In this document: in pieces, positions 1-57,550 of the stretch
How positions within the stretch are numbered: the stretch's first letter is position 1
Layout: each line of letters opens with the position of its first letter
DNA from: Nanobdellota archaeon
GTDB lineage: Archaea > Nanobdellota > Nanobdellia > CSSed11-243R1
Reading direction: 5' to 3'
NCBI GenBank assembly: GCA_021162365.1
Contig: JAGGYW010000013.1
Location: 8,960 to 72,959, forward strand
Length of the DNA: 64,000 nt
The notes under the pieces: generated by a model
Databases searched by the model: none
What the model was told of the DNA's origin: nothing
The model's input: only the letters and a program-made list of their open reading frames with translations
Translations under genes and position numbers: made by a program

Positions 1-2246
1 ATAATGTAATCCCAAACTGCTTGGTCGCTCCAGCTTCTGCCCGCGTCTAAGAAACCGTCATATACAGAATATAAAGCAAGTATCACTTTGGATTCATTTT
101 TGTCTGTTATGTTAAAGCCCGATTCTTTTATTAGTTTGTCAAGTAAATCCATTCCGTCCATGTAACCCCCAAGATTCATTGGATATCCTGTTATTGTAGT
201 GGATGAAGTGACATTATGCAATCTTATGAATAATGCTCTCTTTTCTAAATCAGTCAGATTTTCATAAGCATTAACTATATCCACTATCATCTGGGCTTCG
301 CTTGCATTTATACCATCATGGAAATTATCGTCTTCAGAAAGCAAGAGCGTTAGGTTTCCATAGTTTTTCAATCTTGAAGTAACATTAAATAAGTCTGGAA
401 TTACGTTAAATTCTTCTTTAGATAGCATGTTGCTTGCAATATACCTCGCAAGCAACATTGGATTTATTTTACCTGTTGTTACTAATGCACGACTTGCATT
501 ATAGTGCCAGTCATCTCCTGCGGGGAACCAACTTAAAAAATCGGATGTGAAATTCATGTTTTCCTGTGTTCCATTTAGTTGGCGGAATACATTATTCCAA
601 TATAATGTAAACCAGTCGGTTGCTCTTGTCCCCACCGTTCCATTTAAAGGCGTTCCTCTTGAACCAAATAAGTTGTATTTATCATTTCCACCCAGCATTA
701 AAATTGGGAGTATTTCCTTAAGTGTGCTGTTTGTATCCTCTATGTATTTTGCTAAATTATTAACCCCGATTGTATCAACTTGTTTTTCAGCTAAATCAAA
801 TGCACCTTTAGTACTTAGTTTGTCTTCTTTTAGAAGAGGGAAGATTTCAGTGTAAAGCGCCCAAACAATTCTTGCTTGAGTTTCATTTTGCATGTTTATC
901 CCTTTCTTCTTTGCGAATTCGCCGGCAAGATATCCTATTGCATCACCTCCATCTCCATCGTACTTTTCTATTTCTTTTTTGATTTCACTTATTTCTTGTT
1001 GTGATGTTGTACTTTGCTCTGAGGTATTAATCTGTGAAGAATTATTATTTCCTTTTTTTGTTGGTATAACAAATGGATAGTTTGTTTTGTTCATTAACTC
1101 AAGGGGAACTATGTTCTTTTCTGGTTGGGTGAGTCTTACATATGAAGTGAATATATCTTTGATTAGTTGAGTTTCGCTTGCGTTTATTCCATCTTGAAAG
1201 TTGTTATTTTCTGAAAGCAGAAGGGTTAGGTTAGAATATTTACTTAAGTTTCCATCAACAGAGAGAATCTTTGGGAGGATGTTGAATTCTTCTCTTGAAA
1301 GTTGACTGCTTTTAATTAGATTGAAGAATTGGTCACCTGTTATGTTACCATCTGCTATAATTGATTGGGTTGCGTTGAAGTGCTCCCAGTTTGTGGCATT
1401 AAATGCACTGAGGAAGTGATCAAGGGCCGTGGAATTTATTGGTTCATTGAATAATTCACTATACATAGTATCCCAATGTGGCGGTTCAGGCATTTTTTGG
1501 AATGCTGCATATGCTGCTGTGAGGAGCGTTCCAAGTGCTACCCCAATAGCGACAATCTTTTTGAAGAGGGATTTTCTCTTTTTCTTCTTTGAAGGGACCC
1601 CACCTTTTTTATTATTCTCACATCCGTTTATGAATCCCTCTCTTGGTGCTTTTCCATTGTCTATGCTATTCCCATTTGTAAGTCCCTGTCTTATTGTTTT
1701 TGGAGAACGAAGGTTTAGCGGGTAACTATGGTTTTCTATTCTTTCGAGGAGATCTACCGCACCATGCTCTATAGCTGCTACTGCGAGATTTGCTTTGTGT
1801 TCTATTTCATCTTCATCACCATAATACTCTAGTCTATGCTCTTTTGGATTAAATTTAAATGGGAGGTTTTCTTCTTCTAAGATTTTTTCAAGAGTTGCTT
1901 GCTCCTCCTCGTTTAGCGGTTGTGTTATCTCTTCTTTTCTTTTCTTGTAAGCACCCCATACCCATGAGAATAAAATTCCATCTGCAACTTCTTTTGGAAT
2001 TCCGAAGTAGGAATCTAGCTTCTTTAAGATATCTCCAACGAAGAGAGTGGGAGCTATACTAATATTTCCTGCCTCATCTAGGCGTTCTAAGAAAGGCCAT
2101 AGTGCATTTACGGTGTAATTTACTAATTCCGGCGTTTCTTCTGGTGATAATTCCTTAGTTTCCCCAAATTTTATGAGCTCCTGCTCTATTGGTGAGAGTA
2201 AATTCATATCCCAAGGCGTCATTAGCGGTTCCGCTTCAGTTGACAT
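1..2246 (-). CDS. Partial CDS (N-terminal >748 aa; C-terminus beyond window start). Single-pass membrane glycoprotein: ~210-aa cytoplasmic N-domain, polybasic stretch KKKKRKSLFKK, TM IVAIGVALGTLLTAAYAAF, then an extracellular region dense in N-x-S/T sequons. Contains an internal ~300-aa tandem duplication (e.g. GNLTLLLSENNNFQDGINASETQ / GNLTLLLSEDDNFHDGINASEAQ).
   Basis: Manual reverse-complement translation from ATG at 2246 gives an uninterrupted frame to position 1. The ORF track omits it because it has no in-window stop. The repeat is visible at DNA level: ~1180-1310 resembles ~290-420. Confidence 0.6.
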   Translation of the reverse strand, partial: MSTEAEPLMTPWDMNLLSPIEQELIKFGETKELSPEETPELVNYTVNALWPFLERLDEAGNISIAPTLFVGDILKKLDSYFGIPKEVADGILFSWVWGAYKKRKEEITQPLNEEEQATLEKILEEENLPFKFNPKEHRLEYYGDEDEIEHKANLAVAAIEHGAVDLLERIENHSYPLNLRSPKTIRQGLTNGNSIDNGKAPREGFINGCENNKKGGVPSKKKKRKSLFKKIVAIGVALGTLLTAAYAAFQKMPEPPHWDTMYSELFNEPINSTALDHFLSAFNATNWEHFNATQSIIADGNITGDQFFNLIKSSQLSREEFNILPKILSVDGNLSKYSNLTLLLSENNNFQDGINASETQLIKDIFTSYVRLTQPEKNIVPLELMNKTNYPFVIPTKKGNNNSSQINTSEQSTTSQQEISEIKKEIEKYDGDGGDAIGYLAGEFAKKKGINMQNETQARIVWALYTEIFPLLKEDKLSTKGAFDLAEKQVDTIGVNNLAKYIEDTNSTLKEILPILMLGGNDKYNLFGSRGTPLNGTVGTRATDWFTLYWNNVFRQLNGTQENMNFTSDFLSWFPAGDDWHYNASRALVTTGKINPMLLARYIASNMLSKEEFNVIPDLFNVTSRLKNYGNLTLLLSEDDNFHDGINASEAQMIVDIVNAYENLTDLEKRALFIRLHNVTSSTTITGYPMNLGGYMDGMDLLDKLIKESGFNITDKNESKVILALYSVYDGFLDAGRSWSDQAVWDYI

Positions 2247-5300: not shown

Positions 5301-7078
5301 AAGTCGAAGTAGTTGGCATTAGTGATGAAATAAATATAATTAATGAGATAATAGATACTTTTTCTGAGTGGGTTAATAAAATTGACTTTGATAATATTAG
5401 TGATGTTGAGTTATCATTTATATCCATCTATCTTGGAGAGTTAAAGGAGAAAATAAATGGATTATGGAAAAGGATAACTACTGAGTTAAATCCGAGCAAG
5501 GCTGAAATAGCTTTTGCAAATCAGAAATTTATTGAACTTTTGGGAAAAGAGAATGTACCTTTTGATATTTATAATCCATTTTTTGACAACAATGATTTCT
5601 TAGAGAATGCAATTGGGGTATCCGAAGAAAAGGTTAATATTCTGACTAAGCTGTTTATGTTGTCCCGTACAATGTATGATCTGAACAAAAGTGTTTTATT
5701 TAAAATAGATCCTGCCTCTGCTGCTCTAGAGTATTTTGATGAATTCGATTTGGCGATAGGATTTGTTCCACTCGCAGGGGATGTAGTTGATCTAGCTAAT
5801 TCTGTGGCGCATGTGATTTATGGATTTTGGAAAAATAACAAAGAGGAGGCGATCTTAAACATTATCTTAGCTACTATTGCGGTATGGGGTAGTGTAAGTG
5901 CATTTAGAGAGATGGGAAAGTTAAGCAAATCATCCCTAACTAAATTCAGAAAGACTCTACTTAGGAAGTTAATAGATATGGGAGTACCTGAGGAGGAAGC
6001 AGATAACATTGTTAGGAAGTTCGTTAGTTCTATGGATGATATGTCTGAAGCCATGTTTAATAAATTTAAAAATGCTTTAGATGATTTTGTTGAATTAGGC
6101 ATAGATTTAAGCAAAATAGACGATGTAGCTAGAGTCAATCTGTTGAAGTTAAGTAAATCCAAGTTAGATAAGCTGACTGATTTTATAAGGCGTGCCCCCG
6201 CAGGGGAAGTTGATGTTTCCACTTTGTTAAATAATATTCTTTCACATTCGGATGATGTTCTCCCGGTAATATCTAAGCTGAATTTGGATGATTTGAGTCC
6301 GGCTTTCTTTAAGTTGTTAAATGAAATGGATGATACCTCTCAAGTTTTCAAGTACCTCTCAAAAGCAGATGATGCCACTGATGTTGCTAATAAGTTGGCT
6401 GAGTTAAGAGCATTGGGGCTTAGTATAAATAAGATTAAGAAAATATTTTCTTGGCCAAAGATAAAGTTTGACATGGGAGGTAATGCTTTTGAAAGTTTTG
6501 TAAAGAATTTTGATGAGTGGGCGAAGGGATTTGATAAATTAAAAGACATAGTCTCAGAGGACATGGTGATAACGCTTAAAGATACAGTTTCAAGCGATGC
6601 AGGGGGAATATCGTGGGGTAAACATGGTGGATATGAGCACTGGATTGAGTTGAACGTTGGAGCGATATCCGAGTATCCGGAAGTTGCACCATCGATTATT
6701 CTTCACGAGGCTATTGAGAATAAGATATGGGCAAAGTTGGAGGGTTTATTCCCAAATAGAAGTTACGGCGAACAAGAGGTAATTGTTGAGTCTCTTGTAA
6801 GAAAGTTGCTTGGGAAAGGAGAATACAAATTTGCTACTCTTTCATCGCTTATGGATGAGATAGAAGAGATGATTAAAAATTGGCACTTACTTTCTGAGTT
6901 AGATAGAGATGTTTTAGCTAAGGATATGGCAATCCTTAGTGGCTTAGATATGCAATCCTATAAGGCATTTGAGAGCAAATTAATAAATATGAATGCGTGG
7001 TTTAGTATTAGTGAGGATATAAGCAAATATGCTGATGTTTTTAATAACGATTGGGCGAATTTATTGCTAGGGGGGTGA
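2369..7078 (+). CDS. Giant (1569 aa) single-pass membrane protein. Cleavable signal peptide (MRRWVLLLLLAFISVSFLGVANA), ~730-aa extracellular region with many N-glycosylation sequons and a possible galactose-binding-like/jelly-roll region. TM at VAVAAIATSAALVAIRVV. ~800-aa cytoplasmic coiled-coil/charged domain.
   Basis: ORF track. Hydrophobicity pattern and sequon density read from the translation. No catalytic motif recognised. Confidence 0.7.
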   Translation: MRRWVLLLLLAFISVSFLGVANAEVYFNDSNPSPGETISFDGNVTICGSSPRILIKDPSGKYNLNPDYVDIDVKYIKSIGYCTNKYHVNGTIRIGSNFTSGEYSLVLDFLYGLSDRIVSYKFVVGSVSPWKYLTNSPDGDWKSVNYDDSNWGEGDPPFGNPSLFPDSVNTSWSSREIYLRKEVYLDNYSQAMLRMFAENHIECWVNGNYVGEHSSISALRSLNCYGADNVYYGDVGVTAIGDYTYNGIKYVDISKYLKPGKNVIACRAEIFNQVYRRCFNFCRYYPGRQFVDVEFLPQQGNEIYWSVDRVGTYYYKRNYDAYSIYREYGCKEVVGSSYITHRYVPVREWEGYWQWNQLDITDDTTFYHKPNHFNWAYDELDRTIYWGISPFNGRATYIRKWIWSSEDKYSVLKVASLSEPVCFINNKQIAFYDYNHNYWRYVSYVHLTEGANLVACSLPYNEFNLFDISLSAFDGKFKIDNVRYGDGKLFIDLSGLAHPEVNSLVEVNISNKSYTLPVVDAEINKNTVVGNVSIPSKSPTWEENATLSAVENAAHTSNILDGNWNSYCFASRGDRNMTVEETFHLLSNLTLSELRIKYKFLNNVEVYLFNYNTSSFDLVDKKFANLVSMRTIEISNATSYFSPSGEVIVKLVASGDARLYEVAIMYDGLRNVFTNYTYILSSKEVEIPISVDPGMYNLTISAIDLIDGEMDVFFGEISIPQYTPVNIGFVPVSGSGKSNDGVKVNGAVAVAAIATSAALVAIRVVRDSRSPVGQIEKSLQKMDKILSRLERHRQSSIRSNLFSFVSLVNKKYNLFKQHLMERREEEKRVDELKEEIKERRKKMKEERDSLSEKLVKVLLSNLSGSIEEQIREIDSLLSGYELNYKDAKLLLRYRRMLFAKLFDIDSEKVDALVKEFAREHKLGYLKLGRWSDRLRLIIDDSSLRSEFEEFLNGKDTGEFSDEITLIEETSSAEEIDDEVEVVGISDEINIINEIIDTFSEWVNKIDFDNISDVELSFISIYLGELKEKINGLWKRITTELNPSKAEIAFANQKFIELLGKENVPFDIYNPFFDNNDFLENAIGVSEEKVNILTKLFMLSRTMYDLNKSVLFKIDPASAALEYFDEFDLAIGFVPLAGDVVDLANSVAHVIYGFWKNNKEEAILNIILATIAVWGSVSAFREMGKLSKSSLTKFRKTLLRKLIDMGVPEEEADNIVRKFVSSMDDMSEAMFNKFKNALDDFVELGIDLSKIDDVARVNLLKLSKSKLDKLTDFIRRAPAGEVDVSTLLNNILSHSDDVLPVISKLNLDDLSPAFFKLLNEMDDTSQVFKYLSKADDATDVANKLAELRALGLSINKIKKIFSWPKIKFDMGGNAFESFVKNFDEWAKGFDKLKDIVSEDMVITLKDTVSSDAGGISWGKHGGYEHWIELNVGAISEYPEVAPSIILHEAIENKIWAKLEGLFPNRSYGEQEVIVESLVRKLLGKGEYKFATLSSLMDEIEEMIKNWHLLSELDRDVLAKDMAILSGLDMQSYKAFESKLINMNAWFSISEDISKYADVFNNDWANLLLGG

Positions 7079-10126: not shown

Positions 10127-11422
10127 GTGAGTTGGATGGCAAAAGGATATTTACATTACATAAATCTTGGCTACAAGCCAAAAAAAGACGAGCTTATAGC
10201 TGTATACAAGTTTAAACCAAGGAAAGGGGTGGGTAAGAAAGAAGCAGCGGGAGCAATTGCAGCAGAATCCTCTACAGGAACTTGGACAACACTTTCTACA
10301 ATGACTTTGAAGAGAATGACAAAGATAGGTGCGAAGGTTTACAAAATGTATGGGGACTATGCAGAGATAGCATACCCGCTTGATTTATTTGAATTGGGTA
10401 ATATGCCTGAGATTCTTTCTTCTATTGCTGGAAATATTTTTGGTATGAAGGAAGTTGACACTATAAGGCTTGTTGATGTCAAGTGGCCAACGAAGTTAAA
10501 GAATTCTTTTAAGGGACCGCAGTTTGGTATAAAAGGTGTGAGGAAACTTTTAGGTGTAAAAAAGCGCCCATTAGTTGGCACTATTGTAAAGCCAAAACTT
10601 GGATTGACTTCCAAGGAGCATGCCAAAGTTGCTTATGAAGCGTGGGTTGGTGGATTAGACATAGTAAAAGATGATGAGAATTTAACATCACAGCCATTTA
10701 ACAAGTTTAAGAAAAGAGTTGAAGAAACATTGAAGCTAAAATGGAAGGCAGAAAAAGAAACAGGCGAAAGAAAAATGTATATGGCAAATGTAACAGCAGA
10801 AACAAGAGAGATGCTAAAGCGTGCAAAGTTCCTTAAGGATATGGGAAATGAATATGCAATGGTTGACATTCTTACTGTTGGGTTTGCTGGATTGCAAACT
10901 TTACGTGATGAAATGGATAAACTAAAGCTTGTTTTGCATGGCCACCGTGCTATGCATGCTGCACTTACAAGGAATCCGAATCATGGCATATCTATGTCTG
11001 TGCTTGCAGAGATTTCAAGATTGATTGGAACAGACCAGCTACATGTTGGTACCGCGGTTGGTAAGATGGAAGGCAAGAAGAAAGATATCATCTATATAGT
11101 AGATGATGTTGAAGGGAAGTTCATAAGGAAGAGGGGGCACATGCTAGCAGAGAACTGGGGAAAGATAAAACCTATGTTTGCGGTTTGTTCTGGTGGATTG
11201 CATCCAGGATTAGTTCCACCACTAGTTAAGATGTTTGGCGAGGACATAATTATTCAAGCTGGTGGAGGGGTGCATGGACATCCGAGAGGAACAAGAAAGG
11301 GTGCAACTGCAATGAGGCAAGCAGTAGATGCAACTCTGAGAGGAGTCCCACTTAGAGAATATGCAAAGACACACAAGGAGTTAAAAGAAGCAATTGAAAA
11401 GTGGGGAGTTTACAAGGGGTGA
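10127..11422 (+). CDS. rbcL: Ribulose-1,5-bisphosphate carboxylase/oxygenase, archaeal form III large subunit.
   Basis: Family signatures GAIAAESSTGTWTT, GGLDIVKDDENLTSQPF, HGHRAMHAALTR. Length 431 aa. Confidence 0.9.
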   Translation: MSWMAKGYLHYINLGYKPKKDELIAVYKFKPRKGVGKKEAAGAIAAESSTGTWTTLSTMTLKRMTKIGAKVYKMYGDYAEIAYPLDLFELGNMPEILSSIAGNIFGMKEVDTIRLVDVKWPTKLKNSFKGPQFGIKGVRKLLGVKKRPLVGTIVKPKLGLTSKEHAKVAYEAWVGGLDIVKDDENLTSQPFNKFKKRVEETLKLKWKAEKETGERKMYMANVTAETREMLKRAKFLKDMGNEYAMVDILTVGFAGLQTLRDEMDKLKLVLHGHRAMHAALTRNPNHGISMSVLAEISRLIGTDQLHVGTAVGKMEGKKKDIIYIVDDVEGKFIRKRGHMLAENWGKIKPMFAVCSGGLHPGLVPPLVKMFGEDIIIQAGGGVHGHPRGTRKGATAMRQAVDATLRGVPLREYAKTHKELKEAIEKWGVYKG

Positions 11423-12920
11423 TATAGTGTTTCAGCTGAGAGCAAAGATTGTTGATATTGAAACGGGCGGCATGCCTGTTATTTCTTTAAATGAAGATTT
11501 TGCTAAAGAAAATGATTTTCACAATATGGATAGGGTGGTAGTTAGTTTTAATGGGAAATCTCTTGTTGCAGCAGTTGATACTTCTGAAAAGATAGTTTCA
11601 AAGGAAGAGGTAGGTATATTTGAAGATGTGTGGAAAAAGTTGAAAATTAAGAATGGGGACATTGTTGAGATTACTCCAGTTGGTAAGCCGGAGTCGACAA
11701 AGTATATACGCAAGAAGATGGATAGGGAAGAACTTTTCGATAAAGAGATTAGAGCGATTGTGAAAGACATTGTTGATGAAAAGTTGACAGATGTTGAAAT
11801 GGCAGCATTTGTTGCTGCGTCATATATGGAAGGATTAAGTATGTCGGAGACGACAAGCCTAACTCGTGCAATTGTAGAAACGGGTGGTCGTTTGAAGTTA
11901 AGGAAGAAAATAATTGCGGATAAGCATTCCATTGGTGGAGTGCCCGGAAACAGAGTTACTATGGTGTTGGTCCCCATAATTGCATCTCTTGGAATCACAA
12001 TCCCAAAAACATCTAGTCGTGCTATAACTTCCCCTTCAGGTACAGCGGACACCATGGAAGTTTTAGCAAACGTTAGTTTCTCAACGGAAGAATTAACTAA
12101 AATTGTAGAAAAGACAAATGGGTGCATTGCATGGGGTGGGGCAATTAATCTTGCGGCTGCGGATGACAAGCTTATCAGAATTAGACACCCACTTTCTTTG
12201 GATCCTGAAGGTTTAATGCTCGCATCTGTTATGGCAAAGAAAGTTGCAGTTGGGGCTACTCATGTTATATTTGACTTGCCAATAGGTGAGGAAGCAAAGC
12301 TCCAATCTTTAGGTGAGGCGAGACACCTTGAGAGAGAATTTACAAAACTTGCAGAGAAATTTGGTATTAAGGTTGAAACTTTAGTGACAGATGGAAACAA
12401 CCCAATTGGCAATGGGATCGGACCCAATCTTGAAGCAAGAGATGTTCTTTGGCTTTTAAAGAACGATAGAAGGGGACCTTTAGATTTGAGGAGAAAGTCT
12501 GTCTTGCTTGCAGGTAAACTTCTCGAATTAGTTGGTTATGCAAAGGAAGGAGAAGGGGAGAAAATTGCGGATGCACAGATAGACAACGGAAAGGCGTATC
12601 AGAAGATGAAAGAGATAATTGAAGCGCAGGGTGGAAATCCAAATGTCAATCCAGAAGATTTGCATGTTGGGGAGTTTACATGTGATTATGAAGCTGAAAA
12701 GTATGGTAGAATAACAAATATGAGTAATCATGCTCTCGCGAAGATAGCAAGGGCTGCAGGCTCTCCAGTGGATAAGGAAGCAGGCATTTACATCTATAAG
12801 AAGTATGGTTCTAATGTTAAGCAAGGAGAAAAAATATTTACTGTATACTCTAAAAGTGAAAGGCGCATAGAGCGTGCTATAAAGCTTATGAAGGAATTGA
12901 ATCCTGTTACAATTGAGTGA
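11394..12920 (+). CDS. deoA: AMP phosphorylase (thymidine-phosphorylase family with N-terminal extension).
   Basis: Pyrimidine-nucleoside phosphorylase core (SIGGVPGNRVTMVLVPIIASLG, TSSRAITSPSGTADT) plus the N-terminal domain typical of archaeal AMPpase. Start overlaps the rbcL stop. Confidence 0.85.
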   Translation: MKSGEFTRGDIVFQLRAKIVDIETGGMPVISLNEDFAKENDFHNMDRVVVSFNGKSLVAAVDTSEKIVSKEEVGIFEDVWKKLKIKNGDIVEITPVGKPESTKYIRKKMDREELFDKEIRAIVKDIVDEKLTDVEMAAFVAASYMEGLSMSETTSLTRAIVETGGRLKLRKKIIADKHSIGGVPGNRVTMVLVPIIASLGITIPKTSSRAITSPSGTADTMEVLANVSFSTEELTKIVEKTNGCIAWGGAINLAAADDKLIRIRHPLSLDPEGLMLASVMAKKVAVGATHVIFDLPIGEEAKLQSLGEARHLEREFTKLAEKFGIKVETLVTDGNNPIGNGIGPNLEARDVLWLLKNDRRGPLDLRRKSVLLAGKLLELVGYAKEGEGEKIADAQIDNGKAYQKMKEIIEAQGGNPNVNPEDLHVGEFTCDYEAEKYGRITNMSNHALAKIARAAGSPVDKEAGIYIYKKYGSNVKQGEKIFTVYSKSERRIERAIKLMKELNPVTIE

Positions 12921-26927: not shown

Positions 26928-27174
26928 GGCCCCGACGGGACTTTCGTGCAAGCCTTTTCTTAAAAAGAAAAGCCTTGAGGGAAAAGAAGTTTCTTTCCCT
27001 GCAGACTTTCTTTCCTAAAGAAAGGCTGCTTTCGAACCCGCAACCACCTGGTTTCTCCTCTCTTCTTTGCTCAAGCTTTCTTTCTAAGAAAGCTTGTCCG
27101 AAGCCAGGCGCTCTATCCAGGTTGCTTCAACACCTCTTCTTTCTAAGAAAAGGTGCTGATTAAGCTACGGGGCC
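26927..27174 (-). tRNA. tRNA-Arg (anticodon TCG) interrupted by three introns: D-loop, canonical anticodon-loop 37/38, and T-loop 59/60. 248 nt for a ~73-nt mature tRNA.
   Basis: Manual parse of the minus strand. Exons GGCCCCG-TA-GCTT-A..CCTGGATA-GAGC-G-CCTGG-CTTCGG[intron]A-CCAGG-TGGTT-GCGGG-TTCGAA[intron]T-CCCGT-CGGGGCC-T. Introns carry palindromic TTTCTT..AAGAAA mini-hairpins. Confidence 0.6.
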
Positions 27175-33670: not shown

Positions 33671-33692
33671 GAAACCTGCACTAAAGAAAGAA
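33671..33692. repeat. 22-nt exact repeat gaaacctgcactaaagaaagaa (second copy at 39280-39301), flanked by a TTTCTTTCTT-AAAA-AGAAAGAAA hairpin.
   Basis: Exact string match between the two loci. Confidence 0.6.
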
Positions 33693-33789
33693 ATTACTCT
33701 TTCCACAACTTACGCTTTGACAAGACTTCGTCTCGGCATAAGCGACGGAGTCGCTCTGTCTCTTCTTCCTAAAAAAGAAAGGGCAGAAG

Positions 33790-34047
33790 AGGGCCCGGTG
33801 GGACTTCCAAGCACTCGCCAAGAGTTTCTCTCTTAGCGCAGGTTCTCTCTTTTCAAAGAGAGAAAGTGCTTTCGAACCCACGACCCCTTGCTTGCCACGC
33901 TCCCTCTTTCTTTCCCGAGGGTTTCTTTCTCGGGAGAAAGAAAGGCTCTTAGGAGGCAAGTGCTCTATCCAAGCTTTGCCACGCACCCATTCTGCCAGCG
34001 CTTTTCCGTGCACGCTTTTTTAAAGGGTGCGTTTGAGCTACGGGCCC
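33790..34047 (-). tRNA. Candidate tRNA-Arg (anticodon CCT) with multiple introns: D-loop, anticodon loop, T-loop 59/60. The variable region is atypically long (possible extra intron), so the model is tentative.
   Basis: Manual parse. GGGCCCG-TA-GCTC...CTTGGATA-GAGC-A-CTTGC-CTCCTAA[intron]GCAAG-...-GTGGG-TTCGAA[intron]T-CCCAC-CGGGCCC-T. Introns contain gtttctttctcgggagaaagaaagg-type hairpins. Confidence 0.45.
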
Positions 34048-51319: not shown

Positions 51320-51801
51320 ATCCCAAGGGAAACAATAGTGAAGTTATAATTACATCCGTTGGGTAAAGTTAGATTAGCTGATGCAATAATAGCACTTTTT
51401 GTTTTAACACAGCAGCCACCATATTGGTCGGATACTTCCTTACTACATATGGCTATTGCATTTGAGGCGCAATCCCCTTCTGGACAGATAGTTAGGATAT
51501 AATTATACTCCTTTCTATTTAACTTTGAGATGATGTATTCAATTGTGTCCTCCATGTCTGCTTCTTTGTTATACCCGCAGTAGTTAAGTTTAATCATATC
51601 TGCAACGCTTGTGTTTGCGCGCGAAAAGTATAATGTGGAAGATAGAAGTTTTCGGGTGTATAAATTTTGCGAGCGAATTGCTGCTGTTGAAATAGATTCC
51701 CTGTTTAATTCTGTGCTTAGAAAGGTAATGGCAAGTGTAGATAGTATAAGGAGTAATGCAATATCTACTACAACTCCTTGCGATTTTTTATTTGCCAACA
51801 C
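51286..51801 (-). CDS. Type IV pilin-like protein (KKSQG|VVVDIALLLILSTLAI).
   Basis: Class III signal-peptide pattern. Confidence 0.55.
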   Translation of the reverse strand: MLANKKSQGVVVDIALLLILSTLAITFLSTELNRESISTAAIRSQNLYTRKLLSSTLYFSRANTSVADMIKLNYCGYNKEADMEDTIEYIISKLNRKEYNYILTICPEGDCASNAIAICSKEVSDQYGGCCVKTKSAIIASANLTLPNGCNYNFTIVSLGIWPKSMKVEKC

Positions 51802-52195
51802 TCACCACCACCGTTGCAGGTATTGTTTCGTTTTTATACGTGATTAACGTTGGTATTTTGATGGTAACTAATTTTGTTGAATCTTCTATGTTCCCCCAGC
51901 ACCACCATCTTCCATTTTCCTCATTTGTAATATTCACTTTTATTTTTTGTTTTGAGTGAATCCCAATCTCTGAAATGTTTTTGCAGCCCCATATATTTGG
52001 GGGAGAAGTTATTCCAATAGTGTTGTTAAATTTTTGATTTATGATGTAGTTCCCTATTGTAGTTGCTTCCTGTGACATTTGGATTATTTCGTCTTGTTCT
52101 GCGGAATGTAAAAATAAAGAAAATAAAAATAAGATGAACACTACAAGAATAATAGAAATAGGTACTAAGATTGGAACATCTTCACCTATAGGCAT
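51788..52195 (-). CDS. Pilin-like small membrane-anchored protein (N-terminal hydrophobic helix, weaker signal motif).
   Basis: MPIGEDVPILVPISIILVVFILF. Confidence 0.4.
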   Translation of the reverse strand: MPIGEDVPILVPISIILVVFILFLFSLFLHSAEQDEIIQMSQEATTIGNYIINQKFNNTIGITSPPNIWGCKNISEIGIHSKQKIKVNITNEENGRWWCWGNIEDSTKLVTIKIPTLITYKNETIPATVVVSVGK

Positions 52196-52611
52196 TTCTT
52201 AAGCACCACCTTTCCATAAATGTTTGTGATGTTCACACAGCTCGTAGTTAAATTTTCATCTGATCCACTTTCGTTGATTTCGAAGTAAAGAGATTTCGTT
52301 AGGTTGTGTTTGTTGTTAAATAAAGTAATATTTTTGCTTTCTACTATGATACCATAGTTATTTCCTTTGTATACACTCCATGTTTTGTATTTTGAGACGG
52401 AAACAGAATTTATTCTATTGGTTATTTCGTCTATTTCTTTTGACATCAATTTAAGAGAGTATATGTCTCTTTCAATTGATAAGACAAAGAAGAATGTAAT
52501 AGTTATTATTATTGCGAATAGGATGAAAGACATCTTTGAAAATACGAAACTTATTACTCCACGCTTATTTGAAGAAAACTTCAAGTGGCTTCGTTTCCTG
52601 CGGATAGCCAT
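52186..52611 (-). CDS. Type IV pilin-like protein (NKRG|VISFVFSKMSFILFAIIITI).
   Basis: Class III signal-peptide pattern. Confidence 0.5.
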   Translation of the reverse strand: MAIRRKRSHLKFSSNKRGVISFVFSKMSFILFAIIITITFFFVLSIERDIYSLKLMSKEIDEITNRINSVSVSKYKTWSVYKGNNYGIIVESKNITLFNNKHNLTKSLYFEINESGSDENLTTSCVNITNIYGKVVLKKCL

Positions 52612-53014
52612 AATATATCACCAAATTGTAATCTCCCGGCTGAAGAGTGTAGTTTGCTTTTATCTCTCCAAAGGCATCAGTTACATTTATTATATCTATG
52701 TCCGGTTGATTGCTTAAGTTTATTCCAGGACCACTTATTGAGATGGTATCATTTTCTGCATAAAATGTTAACTTGTATCTTTTGGGAATTGTTATGTGTA
52801 CTCGTGCAAATGAGCCAATATCTGTTGTTTCCCTTAGGTTTTTCATGGTATTAATTATCCTTTCATAGCTTTGCATTATCTCTCTCTTGGATGAAAACTC
52901 TGAGAACGCGCTTACCTGATAAAAACCAATCGTTATTACAATTGCAGCTACTAAAAGGGACAAAAATAAAAAAAATGGAAAAGATTCAACACCTTTTTTT
53001 GACATCATTGGCAA
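52565..53014 (-). CDS. Type IV pilin-like protein (SKKG|VESFPFFLFLSLLVAAIVI).
   Basis: Class III signal-peptide pattern. Confidence 0.55.
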   Translation of the reverse strand: MPMMSKKGVESFPFFLFLSLLVAAIVITIGFYQVSAFSEFSSKREIMQSYERIINTMKNLRETTDIGSFARVHITIPKRYKLTFYAENDTISISGPGINLSNQPDIDIINVTDAFGEIKANYTLQPGDYNLVIYYGYPQETKPLEVFFK

Positions 53015-53553
53015 GTCACTGTTTCAGCCACAGCATAGTTTTCGGCAGTTGCTTTATCTTTTACCCAGATGACAACGATATCTCCACTTTGTATATCATA
53101 TGTTTTATCTACTTGTGCTGGGTCTGTGAAGTTTAGTGCTCCATTTGTCCACCATGTGTTTTCTTCTTTAGATTTTACTACTAAGCTTGCAAGCCCGTTG
53201 AAGTCATTTGTGCTGTTCATTAGTTCTATCTTTGCCCATTCAACGCCACAATCATCTTCTATTTTAACACTTGTTACATTTACAATGTCATCCGATGCAT
53301 TACAAATTATGTCCCAGTTGCTTACAATAGGTTTCTCTTCGTCTAGTTCGCATGTTGTTTTTTCAGTTAGAGTTTTGTTTATTTGGGTTGCAGTACTAAT
53401 TGTTCCGCTGCGTAAGATTCCCGTAAATTGAAGTGCTATTCCAATTACCAATGCTGCCACAAGGGCAATTATAATATATCTCAGAGGTAATGCTTCTACA
53501 CCCCTTTTGTTTAATCTCATTTTAAAACCTCCTAACATGTAAAATTTTGACAA
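53005..53553 (-). CDS. Type IV pilin-like protein (NKRG|VEALPLRYIIIALVAALVIGIAL).
   Basis: Class III signal-peptide pattern. Confidence 0.55.
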   Translation of the reverse strand: MSKFYMLGGFKMRLNKRGVEALPLRYIIIALVAALVIGIALQFTGILRSGTISTATQINKTLTEKTTCELDEEKPIVSNWDIICNASDDIVNVTSVKIEDDCGVEWAKIELMNSTNDFNGLASLVVKSKEENTWWTNGALNFTDPAQVDKTYDIQSGDIVVIWVKDKATAENYAVAETVTCQ

Positions 53554-53565
53554 ACTTATAAACTT

Positions 53566-55494
53566 TTATACTCCAAGCGCAATTCTACTTCCAATTAAGG
53601 TGAATGTGAATACAAATAATGCTATTGGTATGTTACGTGCGACTTCATAACTAACCATAACTCCATCCTTCCCATATTCTAGTATTGAAACATAGCGAAT
53701 TAGTAAAACCGCGAGGAGTAACATATAAATTCCTGCGATTAGTTGTAGGGACTCTGCACTAAAGTTTGGTGTTGTTAGGAAAGAGAGATTTAGGTATTGG
53801 TACCCTAAGTTTCCAAGACCTTCCTTTACACTTCTTAGCCCGTCTTGTATTAGCTGTTGTAGGGTTATTACAATACCTGTGATAACTGGTGCAAATATGC
53901 TTGCAGTAGTTCTCATCATTGAAAGGGCATTCCTCAATGTAGTTTTCAACTTTTCTTCAGTTCTATTTAGTTGGTCATAGTGGTTGGATATTGTAAATAG
54001 CATTTGGGCGCTATTTTTAACTCCTTTCTTTAGAGATATTAAAAACACTCTAAACATTACTTTAACATTTGTAGAATGTACGTCTCTTAGGGAGCCATAC
54101 TCTGGATTGAAGAGGGCATTCTCAAGAGTGGTGTGTCTACTTCTTAGTATTTTATATGTTTTTTTCATTAGTTCACCAAATTTTGTATTTGGCATATTTT
54201 CACTTACATGTTTTATTGCTTCTTCTGGAGAACGCCCCTCATCTATTCGGCTTGCAAGGTGATACATCCCATCTATAGCTTCATTTTCAAGTTGTTTTAT
54301 TTCATCTCTTAATTTCTTTTTATACCAAGAAGTCCCATAAGAATATATTGCAATTGCAATCCCAAATCCCCAAATTATTGTGAGGGTGTTGAATCCCTTA
54401 ATCATGTTTGTAAGGAAGTTTGGAATTAGACTTACAAAAGGTGTTTCACTTAAAAGATAAAATATGCCTGGAAAGCTGATTGTTATAAAAATTAATAGCA
54501 CATAAGGTAGGGCAGGAAACTCAATTTCTTTTCCACCAATGATTAACTTTAGGTTTCCCTCTTTTGGGTAAGTTGGCAGCCATTTTGGTAGTTGTATGTT
54601 TGTGAATGAGGGTGGTCTTTTTGATATGATTTTGTTTGAGTAAAAGTAGATTATCAATAGCGACACGCTGAGAATTAGAAACATCTGAAAAGGAGATGCA
54701 AATTCTCCTCCCAAGAAGGAAAATATTGGTAACAGGGAAATTATTACGAGTGGGAGGACAGTTCCAAAGCTAAATAAAAACAAAGTTGGTAGGTATAATT
54801 TGTTTGCATAATCTCTTACTTTGTTTACTACTCCATCTAATGCTATTTTTAATGCTCTGTCGAGGGACTGATTTCTTTTTACCTCATTTTTCTCAGACAT
54901 GGAAGCTATTATCAAGTACAAACTTCTTTTTAGTTCCAGTAGGTATTCTCCCCATGTTTGGGCAAGTTTCCCAAGCTCTTCTTTTAGATTTGTTTTATAA
55001 CCCATGAGACATTTCCACAGAACATCTCTAATTTCCTTACTAATTCTTCCCTCGGAATAGTTTGATACAAATTGAAGTGCTCTTTCTAAGTTTGGATTTT
55101 GTTTTAGGAAAATTACAATTTGGGTGAGTAATGTGGGGGCATAACTAAGTGCATCTATTCTCTCAAGTGCAGCTTCTGTTTTTGGGAACTCTGTTATTAA
55201 GTGCGCTATTAAAAAAGGAATTATTGCACTAATTGAGATTATAATTATGGACGGCGGGATAAATGAAAGAGCAATTAGGTTAATCAAAAGCAAAACAACC
55301 GCACTTATAATTAGAGCCACCCTACTAAAGATGACTACTTCGTATGGCTTAACTCCCCATTTTAAGAACTTTAATGACTTTTTTAGTTCGTCTGTTACGT
55401 TTGTGTCTCTACTTGCAAGCTGTGGGAAATGTATGGAACACCATTTACATGCTTCGACATAAATTTCTCTAATTTTGCTTTCGTGTGTTGCCAT
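53566..55494 (-). CDS. FlaJ/TadC-like polytopic membrane platform protein of an archaeal type IV pilus/archaellum-type system.
   Basis: 642 aa, two blocks of TM helices separated by cytoplasmic domains. Immediately upstream of the six pilin genes on the same strand. Confidence 0.6.
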   Translation of the reverse strand: MATHESKIREIYVEACKWCSIHFPQLASRDTNVTDELKKSLKFLKWGVKPYEVVIFSRVALIISAVVLLLINLIALSFIPPSIIIISISAIIPFLIAHLITEFPKTEAALERIDALSYAPTLLTQIVIFLKQNPNLERALQFVSNYSEGRISKEIRDVLWKCLMGYKTNLKEELGKLAQTWGEYLLELKRSLYLIIASMSEKNEVKRNQSLDRALKIALDGVVNKVRDYANKLYLPTLFLFSFGTVLPLVIISLLPIFSFLGGEFASPFQMFLILSVSLLIIYFYSNKIISKRPPSFTNIQLPKWLPTYPKEGNLKLIIGGKEIEFPALPYVLLIFITISFPGIFYLLSETPFVSLIPNFLTNMIKGFNTLTIIWGFGIAIAIYSYGTSWYKKKLRDEIKQLENEAIDGMYHLASRIDEGRSPEEAIKHVSENMPNTKFGELMKKTYKILRSRHTTLENALFNPEYGSLRDVHSTNVKVMFRVFLISLKKGVKNSAQMLFTISNHYDQLNRTEEKLKTTLRNALSMMRTTASIFAPVITGIVITLQQLIQDGLRSVKEGLGNLGYQYLNLSFLTTPNFSAESLQLIAGIYMLLLAVLLIRYVSILEYGKDGVMVSYEVARNIPIALFVFTFTLIGSRIALGV

Positions 55495-55518
55495 AGCACC
55501 CCTCTAAAAGATGAAAAG

Positions 55519-55698
55519 TGGGCCCGCCCAGATTTGAATTCCCCGACCCCGTCAACTTCTTTTCCGTTGACGCTTTTCTTCTTAAGAAAAGGGTCACTGG
55601 GGACCTCCCGCGTGTAAGGCGGACGTCATAACCATTCTCCACTCCTTTCTTTGGTGCAGCTTTCTTTTCCAAAGAAAGGTGCGCTAGACCACGGGCCC
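55519..55698 (-). tRNA. tRNA-Val (anticodon TAC) with two introns: D-loop, and T-arm 53/54 or 59/60 (boundary ambiguous). No canonical anticodon-loop intron.
   Basis: Manual parse. GGGCCCG-TG-GTCT-AGC[intron]TGGTTA-TGAC-G-TCCGC-CTTACAC-GCGGG-AGGTC-CCCAG[intron]TTCAAAT-CTGGG-CGGGCCC-A. Introns contain cctttctttgg...ccaaagaaagg and cttcttaagaag hairpins. Confidence 0.55.
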
Positions 55699-55737
55699 AT
55701 CTATGAATGTAACTGAATATACTTAGTTTTAAAAGGA

Positions 55738-56016
55738 TTACGCTATCTCGCAGATATGGTTTCTACATACACATTTAATAGTTGTATTTGGCTCGCATAC
55801 TATATTCCTTTTTACTGATACACAATCTCCGCAATATTCAAAACAATCTGAATCCTCTTCGCAGTACTTCATGGAATTCGTAGTCGTTTCTTTAAATCCA
55901 ACGCCGAATTTCTGCATGTCGACATAGACCAGTATCGCAACAATTATCCCTAGGATAATTATAATTATTTTGCCGTGCTTAAGTAAAGTATAATAAAAAA
56001 ATTCACTTAGCGACAT
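55738..56016 (-). CDS. Small membrane protein with a Cys-rich extracytoplasmic tail (92 aa).
   Basis: One TM helix, then CEEDSDCFEYCGDCVSVKRNIVCEPNTTIKCVCRNHIC. Confidence 0.4.
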   Translation of the reverse strand: MSLSEFFYYTLLKHGKIIIIILGIIVAILVYVDMQKFGVGFKETTTNSMKYCEEDSDCFEYCGDCVSVKRNIVCEPNTTIKCVCRNHICEIA

Positions 56017-56018
56017 GA

Positions 56019-56300
56019 TTATTCCTTCGAATATTGTTTGAGTAGTTCTTTAATTTCAGGTTGTAGCTTCTTGCTTAATTCTAATATGATATCCTTTGAT
56101 TTCCCCTCTAGCTTCTTAGCACAGTCAATGCATATGTTCTCTCTGAAGAATTCGATTGATGGACCTCTCCATTTCATTCCAAGCTCTAGGCTGAATGATT
56201 GTGTGCATTGCTTGCAGACATCTCTTCCACAGATTGGACATTGACCGACTGCCAATCTTTCTTTACAAATGTCACAAACCCTTACTGTTACTTCCACCAT
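56019..56300 (-). CDS. Small double zinc-ribbon protein (93 aa).
   Basis: CDICKERLAVGQCPICGRDVCKQC ... CIDCAKKL. Confidence 0.45.
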   Translation of the reverse strand: MVEVTVRVCDICKERLAVGQCPICGRDVCKQCTQSFSLELGMKWRGPSIEFFRENICIDCAKKLEGKSKDIILELSKKLQPEIKELLKQYSKE

Positions 56301-56363
56301 TACAACACCTCTTTATTTTGTTAAAACATTAAATTAGGTCACCATTAATATTATTTTCTAAAA

Positions 56364-56541
56364 TGCGCCGTCCGGGATTCGAACCCGGGTTACAAGCTCT
56401 TCACACACCCTTTCCGTACACGCTTTCGCTTGCGAAAGGGTGTTGGCAAGCTCGCGTCCTAACCATTGTCCGTTCCTTTCCTTTCTTGGCAACCTACCTT
56501 CTTTTCTAAAGAAGGCGGAAAGGTCGCTAGACTAACGGCGC
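56364..56541 (-). tRNA. tRNA-Gly (anticodon GCC) with two introns: a ~60-nt D-loop intron and a canonical ~45-nt anticodon-loop intron.
   Basis: Manual parse. GCGCCGT-TA-GTCT-AGC[intron]TGGTTA-GGAC-G-CGAGC-TTGCCA[intron]A-GCTTG-TAAC-CCGGG-TTCGAAT-CCCGG-ACGGCGC-A. The anticodon intron has an ACACCC/GGGTGT helix. Confidence 0.65.
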
Positions 56542-56605
56542 ACATTTTGAGTATATTTTAGGGGATATATAAATCTTTTTAAACACACACCTTTGAAATA
56601 TTTTT

Positions 56606-57550
56606 ATGGTTCTTGCAAGGCTGACTGAGGCACAGAAGAGACTTTTCATTAGACAGCACTATGGAATAGCAGGGAATCATTCTGCAGTTAAGTTGTGTGG
56701 CTGGACGAAAAAATCTCTTCATGATAAAGGCGTTTGCTACAAGCAAAAATTTTATGGAATAGAATCCCATAGGTGTCTTCAATGCACACCTGTTATTAAT
56801 TGGTGCACACAAAATTGTGACTTTTGCTGGAGGTTAGGGAGATATCAATACCCAGAGTTAGAAGGGTGGGATGAGCCAAAGGAAATTGTTGACAAAATGA
56901 TCGAAGCGCAGAGGAAGCTACTTTCTGGCTTTCCCGGTGCTGATGTAAATATGAAAAAATGGAAGGAAGCACAAAATCCAACTCAAGTAGCAATTTCCCT
57001 CGCAGGAGAGCCAACGATATATCCAAAGCTTGGAGAATTAATTGCTGAATTTCATAAAAGAGGTATGACAACTTTTTTGGTAACAAATGGGACTTTGCCT
57101 GAGAGACTTGAAAATTTAAATCCGCTTCCAACACAACTTTATGTTACTATTGCAGCGCCAGATAAAGAAACTTGTATGGGTTTATGTCATCCGAATTTGC
57201 CTGACGCTTGGGAGCGTTTGATGAAAACTCTTGAGTTGCTTCCAAAATTGAACACTCGCAAAGTAATTCGTCTTACTCTTGTCAAAGGAGTTAATATGAA
57301 GTATCCTGAAAAATACGCCGAGCTAATAAAAAAAGCAAAACCACATTTCATTGAGGCAAAGGGATATATGTCTGTTGGCTCTGCAAGGCAGAGATTGGGA
57401 TTAGAGCACATGCCAACTCATGAAGAAATTGTTGAATTTTCTAAGGAGCTTTCCAGACATTTGGGAGTTCCAATTGCTGATGAGCACAAGCCAAGCAGAG
57501 TTGTTTTGCTAACTAATCTGCCAAAGGAAAAGTGGAAGGTTAACCGCTGA
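56606..57550 (+). CDS. taw1: tRNA 4-demethylwyosine synthase (radical SAM; Taw1/TYW1).
   Basis: Radical-SAM CTQNCDFCWR (Cx3Cx2C) plus family-typical N- and C-terminal blocks. Confidence 0.8.
   Translation: MVLARLTEAQKRLFIRQHYGIAGNHSAVKLCGWTKKSLHDKGVCYKQKFYGIESHRCLQCTPVINWCTQNCDFCWRLGRYQYPELEGWDEPKEIVDKMIEAQRKLLSGFPGADVNMKKWKEAQNPTQVAISLAGEPTIYPKLGELIAEFHKRGMTTFLVTNGTLPERLENLNPLPTQLYVTIAAPDKETCMGLCHPNLPDAWERLMKTLELLPKLNTRKVIRLTLVKGVNMKYPEKYAELIKKAKPHFIEAKGYMSVGSARQRLGLEHMPTHEEIVEFSKELSRHLGVPIADEHKPSRVVLLTNLPKEKWKVNR

Follow-up and report, generated by a model that had tools for sequence, protein, structure and literature searches.

Interrupted tRNA genes in Archaea

Transfer RNA (tRNA) genes that carry several introns, some of them at non-canonical positions such as 53/54 and 59/60, are textbook material for the Crenarchaeota (PMC4090602, PMC8450103). 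tRNAs that carry only non-canonical introns are a documented feature of the Thermoproteales (PMC4090602, PMC4033280, PMC8450103), and there is published precedent for such genes both in Crenarchaeota and in DPANN archaea (PMC3239211, PMC5829648, PMC4090602). Here we describe a tRNA-Val(UAC) gene with two non-canonical introns, found in a stretch of 64,000 nucleotides of DNA from a Nanobdellota archaeon (NCBI GenBank assembly GCA_021162365.1, contig JAGGYW010000013.1, positions 8,960 to 72,959 of the forward strand). This stretch is hereafter called the window, and all positions refer to it at its full length of 64 kb. The gene belongs to a kind that is already known, and the added value of the locus is the evolutionary series formed by its orthologues.

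One described gene that resembles it is that for tRNA-Pro(GGG) of ARMAN-2, whose only introns are located at 53/54 and 59/60 (2011, PMC3239211). Both hosts are DPANN archaea, and each gene has two introns, both non-canonical, with one at 53/54 and none at 37/38. The 59/60 position is likewise used by the orthologous tRNA-Val genes of two relatives (L002 and L005, described below). However, both ARMAN-2 introns lie in the T-arm and form bulge-helix-bulge (BHB) motifs of the strict hBHBh' type, whereas one of the introns in the window lies in the D-loop and both are of the relaxed HBh' type. In ARMAN-2, which represents another phylum within DPANN, 56% of tRNA genes are disrupted, and its endonuclease (epsilon2) is known and cuts relaxed motifs in vitro (PMC3239211). 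For the lineage of the window, the type of enzyme is a prediction (see below).

The Thermoproteales provide another point of comparison. As related in later accounts of the original studies (Sugahara 2008 and Fujishima 2010, via PMC4033280, PMC4090602 and PMC8450103), their tRNA genes have up to three BHB introns each, with 53/54 and 59/60 among the positions used, and these multi-intron genes are missed by standard finders. The same accounts describe similar introns across tRNA species, a pattern that was read as large-scale intron transposition (PMC4033280, PMC4090602). All of these traits have counterparts here. However, the Thermoproteales are hyperthermophiles of high G+C content that belong to the TACK group, and they have an (alpha-beta)2 endonuclease with a Crenarchaea-specific loop (CSL/L1 loop). 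Introns in the window are 36-90 nt in length, in contrast to published medians of 12-25 nt. There are 10 introns in 6 tRNA genes in the window, which is a higher density, albeit in a small sample, than the Thermoproteales mean of 0.84 per gene or the 71 introns spread over 46 genes of P. calidifontis (PMC8450103). A further difference is that antisense copies of an intron cassette are seen in the clade to which the window belongs.

Closer to the present host, the available text of Kaneta et al. 2018 reports a marked rise of tRNA gene disruption in Pacearchaeota, Woesearchaeota and Nanohaloarchaea, and states that incomplete predicted DPANN tRNA sets hint at undetected disrupted genes (PMC5829648). 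The study concerns DPANN archaea with an L3-loop alpha4 splicing endonuclease (EndA) and is a cross-species survey, and the text available includes neither this gene nor intron families or orthologue-wise changes of intron position. The split tRNAs of Nanoarchaeum equitans (Randau et al. 2005, as summarized in PMC4090602) come from the same broad group and involve the same BHB-dependent endonuclease chemistry. However, in that summary each piece has a gene and a promoter of its own, whereas the exons described here are collinear within 180 nt.

Structure of the tRNA-Val(UAC) gene

The tRNA-Val(UAC) gene is 180 nt long and lies on the minus strand. G1 is at 55698 and A73 at 55519, which are exactly the boundaries given in a first-pass annotation of the window. 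We consider it very probable that the gene is functional in its host, a DPANN (Nanoarchaeota/Nanobdellota-type) archaeon, and that its two non-canonical introns are spliced by proteins. Precursor numbering, used below for the splice sites, begins with position 1 at 55698.

Exon 1 (55683..55698, or ending at 55684 in an alternative register) comprises the 5' strand of the acceptor stem (GGGCCCG), U8 and G9, the 5' strand of the D-stem (GUCU), A14, G15 and, depending on the register, C16. The D-loop is then interrupted, either after AGC by an intron of 47 nt (register 16/17, 55636..55682) or after AG by an intron of 49 nt (register 15/16, 55635-55683), with both sets of boundaries placed by BHB phasing. 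This first intron contains an 11-bp hairpin formed by CCUUUCUUUGG and CCAAAGAAAGG. Exon 2 (55597..55635) supplies the rest of the D-loop, (A)UGGUUA, the 3' strand of the D-stem (UGAC), a single G, the anticodon arm, the variable loop (AGGUC) and the 5' strand of the T-stem (CCCAG). The anticodon arm, UCCGC-CUUACAC-GCGGG, is uninterrupted and there is no intron at 37/38. Intron 2 (58 nt, 55539..55596) interrupts the T-arm at position 53/54, which is the junction of the T-stem and T-loop. It has two internal hairpins and carries AAAGCGUCAACGGAAA, the core of an intron family called F1 that is discussed below. Exon 3 (55519..55538) contains the T-loop (UUCAAAU), the 3' strands of the T-stem (CUGGG) and acceptor stem (CGGGCCC), and the discriminator base A73. 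The terminal CCA is not encoded. The first-pass annotation had described an intact anticodon arm, a split D-loop and T-arm, and intron positions that are exclusively non-canonical, and this description agrees with the sequence and with the tRNA that is restored on splicing.

On the same strand, a box with the sequence TAATCCTTTTAAAAC, which resembles an archaeal transcription factor B recognition element (BRE) and TATA element, is located at 55726..55740, or -42 to -28 from the first tRNA base, and is a putative promoter. A T-rich trailer, CUUUUCAUCUUUUA (55505..55518), immediately follows the gene and is a likely transcription stop.

In silico splicing and detection by tRNA finders

Removal of both segments in silico leaves a product of 75 nt or 73 nt, depending on the register of intron 1, and both versions are called tRNA-Val(tac) by ARAGORN, the same identity that had been assigned to the locus at first sight. 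The spliced tRNA carries U8, A14, G18G19, A21, U33, A37, the G53-C61 pair, the T-loop UUCAAAU and A73. ARAGORN finds no tRNA in the unspliced 180 nt, nor in versions from which only one segment has been removed. When applied to the whole window, ARAGORN and Rfam (gathering threshold) detect only tRNA-Ala(CGC) and tRNA-Arg(GCG), and Rfam at E<=1 on the region 55400-56650 still reports no tRNA. The expectation that tRNA-Val would be apparently missing from gene counts is thus borne out with these tools.

A combined test was carried out in which every pair of BHB-flanked segments was removed and each resulting variant was then given to ARAGORN. The real region yields tRNA-Val. There are no tRNAs among 1,973 variants derived from 100 shuffles of the region, and none among 15,781 variants derived from 200 random 180-nt genomic segments. 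In addition, the precursor is unusually stable, with a folding z of -4.5 relative to dinucleotide shuffles, and its minimum free energy (MFE) fold includes the BHB at intron 2.

Splice-site geometry and a model for processing

At the canonical archaeal site, a 4-bp helix that includes anticodon bases 34-35 has a 3-nt bulge on either side, and the splice sites lie in these bulges (PMC4090602). The introns of tRNA-Val match this geometry, and one rule fits all four cut sites, wherein a 4-bp helix is followed by a 3-nt bulge that is cut after its second base. At intron 2, the central helix C97-C100 / G155-G158 (CCCC/GGGG) forms 4 of 4 pairs. On the 5' strand it is followed by the bulge A101 G102 U103 and then by the helix G104-C108 / G150-C154, and on the 3' strand it is followed by A159 A160 U161, which gives the bulges AG↓U and AA↓U (arrows mark the cuts). 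The inner helix (GACCC/GGGUC) has 7 of 8 pairs, and the outer helix has about 1 of 5. Restoration of the tRNA needs cuts after G102 and before U161, which are precisely the sites between the second and third bases of the bulges. At intron 1, register 16/17 is associated with a central helix U11-A14 / U58-A61 (UCUA/UGGA) with 4 of 4 pairs, an inner helix with 7 of 8 pairs, and the bulges G15 C16↓G17 and G62 A63↓A64. Register 15/16 has a central helix with 3 of 4 pairs and the bulges AG↓C and AA↓U.

Both introns therefore have BHB motifs of the relaxed HBh' form, with no convincing outer helix. Such motifs are cut only by broad-specificity endonucleases (PMC3239211, PMC5829648). Because neither motif has a good outer helix, the host is predicted to have an enzyme of this class, which might be an (alpha-beta)2 enzyme, an epsilon2 enzyme, or the DPANN alpha4 type with an L3 loop.

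These features can be combined into a model for processing. Transcription would probably proceed from the TATA-like box some 30 nt upstream to give a precursor of about 180 nt, in which each pair of exon-intron boundaries would fold into a BHB. For intron 1, the 5' strand of the D-stem would pair with the 3' end of the intron, and for intron 2, C48-C51 would pair with a GGGG stretch located close to the intron's 3' end. The archaeal enzyme EndA would then cut between the second and third bases of each 3-nt bulge, and a ligase of the RtcB type would join the exons. The D-stem and T-arm would form only after splicing to give a normal cloverleaf of 73-75 nt, to which CCA would be added.

Because three collinear exons lie behind one promoter-like box, splicing is expected to occur in cis. 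A split (trans-spliced) or permuted tRNA was considered and rejected on the same grounds. A box C/D small RNA within an intron, as occurs in tRNA-Trp introns, was also sought, and reading of the sequence revealed no pair of C (RUGAUGA) and D (CUGA) boxes, nor was there an Rfam match.

Orthologues at the same genomic site

Orthologous genes were gathered by searching with exon 2 and by walking from the neighbouring gene TYW1, and the neighbourhood was compared for L002 and L005-L008. Two others, L003 and L004, were found and placed by tRNA pattern alone. In the window and in L005-L008, tRNA-Val is located between a gene for a T2SSF-like membrane protein and two small genes followed by TYW1, and L002 shares only the small-gene side of this arrangement. 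The walk from TYW1 also led to four other contigs (L009-L012), which either stop short of the tRNA-Val site or do not contain it.

There is considerable variety in the introns of these genes. An independent ENA scaffold (L001) is identical to the window through the whole tRNA-Val gene and thus has the D-loop and 53/54 introns. The nearest species-representative genome, L002, which is labelled 'Nanobdellati archaeon', is about 78% identical in nucleotide sequence over an 804-nt BLAST alignment that spans exon 2, intron 1, exon 1 and upstream sequence. Its gene has a D-loop intron and a 59/60 intron, and its exon stretches are the same letter for letter, including an identical exon 1 and an exact copy of the exon 2 pattern. 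A long D-loop intron and a 59/60 intron are found in L005 (TYW1 84% identical). In L007 (TYW1 74%) there is no D-loop intron, and an F1-type intron is located at 37/38, with the contig ending inside this intron. The genes of L006 (TYW1 75%) and L008 (TYW1 71%) have no introns. L003 and L004, which share the anticodon-arm part of the exon 2 pattern, have a D-loop intron only, as judged from the pattern match.

The mature sequences are well supported by covariation. Among five distinct mature orthologue sequences, 95.2% of the cells in the stem alignment are paired, and seven pairs have changes on both sides. These pairs occur across all four helices, including those split between exons, and covarying pairs are present in the acceptor stem (6-67 and 7-66), the D-stem (11-24) and the T-stem (49-65 and 52-62). 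None of 500 shuffles reaches the observed level, and controls in which the partners are slid by one column have at most one pair with changes on both sides. The upstream box TAATCCTTTTAAAAC recurs with unchanged spacing ahead of tRNA-Val at this site in L002, L005 and L007, and the intron-less genes of L006 and L008 have a TTTATAA-type box with that spacing. The covariation, the orthologues at the same site and the placement of the promoter-like box argue against a pseudogene, an artefact or a chance resemblance.

Additional interrupted tRNA genes in the window

Inspection of G+C-rich islands in the window led to three more hidden tRNA genes with multiple introns, all on the minus strand. Each can be spliced in silico to a perfect tRNA at sites phased by BHB motifs. 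A gene for tRNA-Gly(GCC) runs from 56541 to 56364 and has a D-loop intron of 61 nt at 15/16 (central helix GUCU/GGAC, 4 of 4 pairs) and an F1 intron of 45 nt at the canonical position, 37/38. Its spliced product of 72 nt is accepted by ARAGORN, and the unspliced gene is missed by both ARAGORN and Rfam. A gene for tRNA-Arg(CCU), from 34047 to 33790, has introns in the D-loop, at 37/38 and at 59/60, and gives a product of 75 nt that is also accepted by ARAGORN. It is overlapped by a spurious 110-aa open reading frame (ORF; 33681-34013). The third gene, for tRNA-Arg(UCG), runs from 27174 to 26927 and has introns of 38 nt (D-loop), 45 nt (37/38) and 90 nt (59/60), with a spliced product of 75 nt that ARAGORN accepts.

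Two or three introns are thus present in four of the window's six tRNA genes. The first-pass annotation had described the architecture of tRNA-Val as rare, a description that holds for Archaea as a whole and does not hold in this lineage. tRNA-Gly genes at the same position also differ in intron number, wherein L006, L007, L008 and L012 have none, L002 has one, the window has two, and L005 and L011 have three each. The 3' ends of the D-loop introns are complementary to the D-stems of their hosts, with GUCU/GGAC in tRNA-Val and tRNA-Gly and GCUU/AAGC in tRNA-Arg(UCG). Since the end of the intron tracks the D-stem of its host, this amounts to covariation in favour of the BHB structure.

In L003 (at approximately 5850-5900) and L004, on the strand opposite to tRNA-Val and upstream of it, there is a sequence like the 5' end of a tRNA (TAGCCCTATCGTCTAGT) followed by a hairpin formed by CTTTCTTTTCTT and AAGAAAAGA. 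This element looks like one more tRNA with a D-loop intron in a more distant relative.

Intron families and their distribution

The introns are not arbitrary sequence. The D-loop intron of tRNA-Val in the window is 87% identical to that of L002. It shares 95% identity (z = 14.5) with the tRNA-Gly D-loop intron of L005 and has no significant similarity (z = 2.3) to the D-loop intron of tRNA-Val in L005. Likewise, the 59/60 intron of tRNA-Val in L002 is unrelated to intron 2 of tRNA-Val in the window (z = 1.8) and is 92% identical (60/65, z = 23.7) to the 59/60 intron of tRNA-Arg(CCU) in the window. Thus, near-identical introns are present in different tRNAs and, as family F1 shows, related ones at different positions, which is the mark of transposing tRNA-intron families.

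Intron 2 of tRNA-Val belongs to family F1, whose members have the form ACCCUUU, a hairpin, AAAGCGUnnAnGGAAA and, further on, GGGU. Representatives of F1 are located at 37/38 in tRNA-Gly of the window and of L005 and in tRNA-Val of L007, and in the D-loop of tRNA-Arg(CCU) in the window and of tRNA-Gly in L002. Among orthologous tRNA-Val genes alone, F1 occupies 37/38 in L007, 59/60 in L005 and 53/54 in the window. There are three copies of the 16-nt F1 core, AAAGCGTNNANGGAAA, in the window versus an expectation of zero, and all are on the minus strand inside tRNA introns (55561-55576, 56411-56426 and 34003-34018). The core also occurs in L002, L005, L007 and L012, and it has no Rfam match.

Two F1-like sequences are found in antisense orientation. 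One is in L012 (at approximately 2140-2200, plus strand) and is 81% identical to intron 2 of tRNA-Val in the window (z = 12.3). It lies within an insertion of 85 nt that separates the promoter box from a tRNA-Gly gene without introns, and it is flanked by TAACCC and GGGTTA. An insertion of about 80 nt, with a sequence unrelated to that in L012, is present in the leader of the same tRNA-Gly gene in L007. The other antisense stretch is in intron 3 of tRNA-Arg(UCG) in the window (26953-26991) and is 87% identical over 39 nt to the 53/54 intron of tRNA-Val. These copies provide a hint of movement at the DNA level, which we regard as a lead only, and suggest that the F1 cassette can insert into DNA outside of introns.

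From these relationships, the introns of tRNA-Val are best regarded as recently gained from a limited number of related cassettes, which have dispersed over tRNA genes and positions in this clade. Perhaps these Nanoarchaeota-type organisms are undergoing a burst of tRNA-intron gain in which a few mobile cassettes (F1, F2 and F3) are the driving force, a proposal that we find plausible, if somewhat short of probable. It is based on the range of same-position tRNA-Val genes, which extends from intron-less forms (L006 and L008) via a single D-loop intron (L003 and L004, by pattern match) to two introns, on the different positions of F1 in orthologous genes, on the other cassette at 59/60 in L002, and on the antisense F1-like copies. 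These antisense copies would favour insertion into DNA of a miniature element in which BHB boundaries are already present or readily evolve, and not reverse splicing.

Alternative explanations

Several observations weigh against the interpretation of this locus as a functional, spliced tRNA gene. BHB geometry on its own is weak evidence because loose chance matches are frequent, and a scan with loose settings (4/4 central helix, at least 3/4 inner pairs) produces dozens of candidates per 180 nt. Since that scan does not discriminate, it was replaced by the combined test with null controls described above, and, unlike the motif alone, the coincidence of BHB sites with restoration of a tRNA is not frequent by chance. 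A second BHB exists at intron 2, with cuts after precursor positions 108 and 166 that would create a T-loop, UGACCCU, not found in tRNAs; this alternative is weaker, has poor helices and is not part of the MFE fold. When 40 of the window's ORFs (those of at least 110 aa, apart from the six largest) were compared with Pfam, neither EndA nor RtcB was found. In addition, the splice register of the D-loop intron is ambiguous by one nucleotide on each side, wherein the D-loop of the product would be AGCAUGGUUA with register 16/17 and AGUGGUUA with 15/16. The gene might be real and yet be cut at 15/16, so that 49 nt are removed and a 73-nt tRNA remains, and we give this version of events nearly an even chance. 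In the window itself, a C-to-G difference (GGAG for GGAC) breaks the G10 pair and shifts the helix by one pair, such that 16/17 is better, with 4 of 4 pairs versus 3 of 4. In contrast, relatives favour 15/16, for which the helix is perfect (GUCU with GGAC or GGAU, 4 of 4 pairs) in L002, L005, L003 and tRNA-Gly of the window, with the bulges AG↓C and AA↓U (in L003, AG↓A and AA↓C). Register 15/16 also gives a D-loop of 7-8 nt like those of the intron-less orthologues (AGCGGUUA or AGCGGCA), and ARAGORN accepts its 73-nt product.

More radical explanations dispense with a working gene altogether. An ancestral tRNA-Val without introns, as in L006 and L008, could have been broken by small palindromic repeats, leaving a dead gene and another tRNA to decode GUA and GUG. 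The presence of intron-less genes at the same site in more distant relatives fits this explanation, as does the membership of the inserted sequences in repeat families, of which two antisense copies (in the L012 leader and in another intron) look like insertions at the DNA level. However, the exons are undamaged and carry compensatory changes, and all three are letter-identical in L002, where alignable sequence is about 78% identical. Each inserted segment also has BHB cut sites in the right phase at its ends, and cutting there recovers the exact tRNA. No other tRNA-Val was detected by ARAGORN in the window. The first-pass annotation had named an intron-less tRNA-Val(UAC) elsewhere, together with a lack of expression from this locus, as findings that would count against it, and, in a search that for the host itself extends over the window, no such second gene came to light; the exon-2 pattern has a single occurrence in L002, the one species-representative genome matched. 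A dead tRNA-Val would also imply that tRNA-Gly(GCC), tRNA-Arg(CCU) and tRNA-Arg(UCG) are dead, which is implausible for a small genome. For these reasons we judge this explanation to be very unlikely. Even less credible, to the point of being negligible, is an artefact of assembly or binning in which tRNA fragments were joined to unrelated repeats. The sequence does come from a metagenome assembly, and L001 has a scaffolding gap nearby, but along the entire gene the independent ENA assembly shows no difference, and different species (L002 and L005) in other assemblies have an interrupted tRNA-Val with the same architecture at the same site. Thus, a functional gene with two introns removed by protein enzymes is the explanation that we prefer.

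Neighbouring genes

A Pfam scan of ORFs in the window identified form III RuBisCO, AMP phosphorylase, ArgRS, AspRS, NrdR and others. The ArgRS is 100% identical to a protein labelled 'MAG: Nanoarchaeota archaeon', which, together with the label of L002, places the host in DPANN, and there are also matches at 50-56% identity to proteins with Woesearchaeota labels. In the region 10127-12920 (plus strand), a gene for a form III-type RuBisCO large subunit (PF00016/PF02788, E = 6e-96) is directly followed by an AMP/thymidine-phosphorylase-like gene (PF02885/PF00591/PF07831). This pair of genes represents archaeal nucleotide salvage and is common in DPANN.

Directly downstream of tRNA-Val, the region 51788-55494 (minus strand) contains the gene for the 642-aa T2SSF-like membrane protein and, after it, five small ORFs. 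All five have an N-terminal hydrophobic segment and are pilin-like by eye, and the two that were scanned have no Pfam match. Judging by these sequence features, a type IV pilus or archaellum-like cluster is the probable identity of this region.

The L001 scaffold differs from the window in this vicinity. It has a scaffolding gap inside the 642-aa gene, and it is without 18 nt (in frame) near the 3' end of a 93-aa Cys-rich gene (56019-56300), at approximately 56040-56060 of the window. Otherwise it is 99.7-100% identical to the window. The differences are strain-level variation or an assembly difference.

Implications for tRNA gene sets and intron evolution

Because ARAGORN and Rfam miss tRNA-Val and three other tRNA genes in only 64 kb, the tRNA complements of such genomes will be undercounted. 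A 2026 preprint covering 208 complete Nanobdellota genomes reports that, with tRNAscan-SE, tRNA-Val is undetected in 15 of 54 Pacearchaeales and tRNA-Trp in many others, and it leaves undecided among loss, failure of detection and split genes (10.64898/2026.05.13.725050). Genes with multiple introns may be an explanation for these 'missing' tRNAs, a candidate drawn from results with ARAGORN and Rfam on a host placed at the level of DPANN. In tRNAscan-SE 2.0, non-canonical introns are found only in candidates first caught by the archaeal model, and the BHB models were trained on Crenarchaeota/Euryarchaeota and Thaumarchaeota (PMC8450103).

The series of orthologous tRNA-Val genes, with no intron, with one at 37/38, with D-loop and 59/60 introns, or with D-loop and 53/54 introns, together with the cassettes that they share with other tRNA genes, gives an unusually clear picture of introns that have recently been gained and repositioned. 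It does so outside the Thermoproteales, where intron transposition was first described. If the proposal of a burst driven by a few mobile cassettes is true, then this clade would be a natural system for studying how archaeal tRNA introns are gained.

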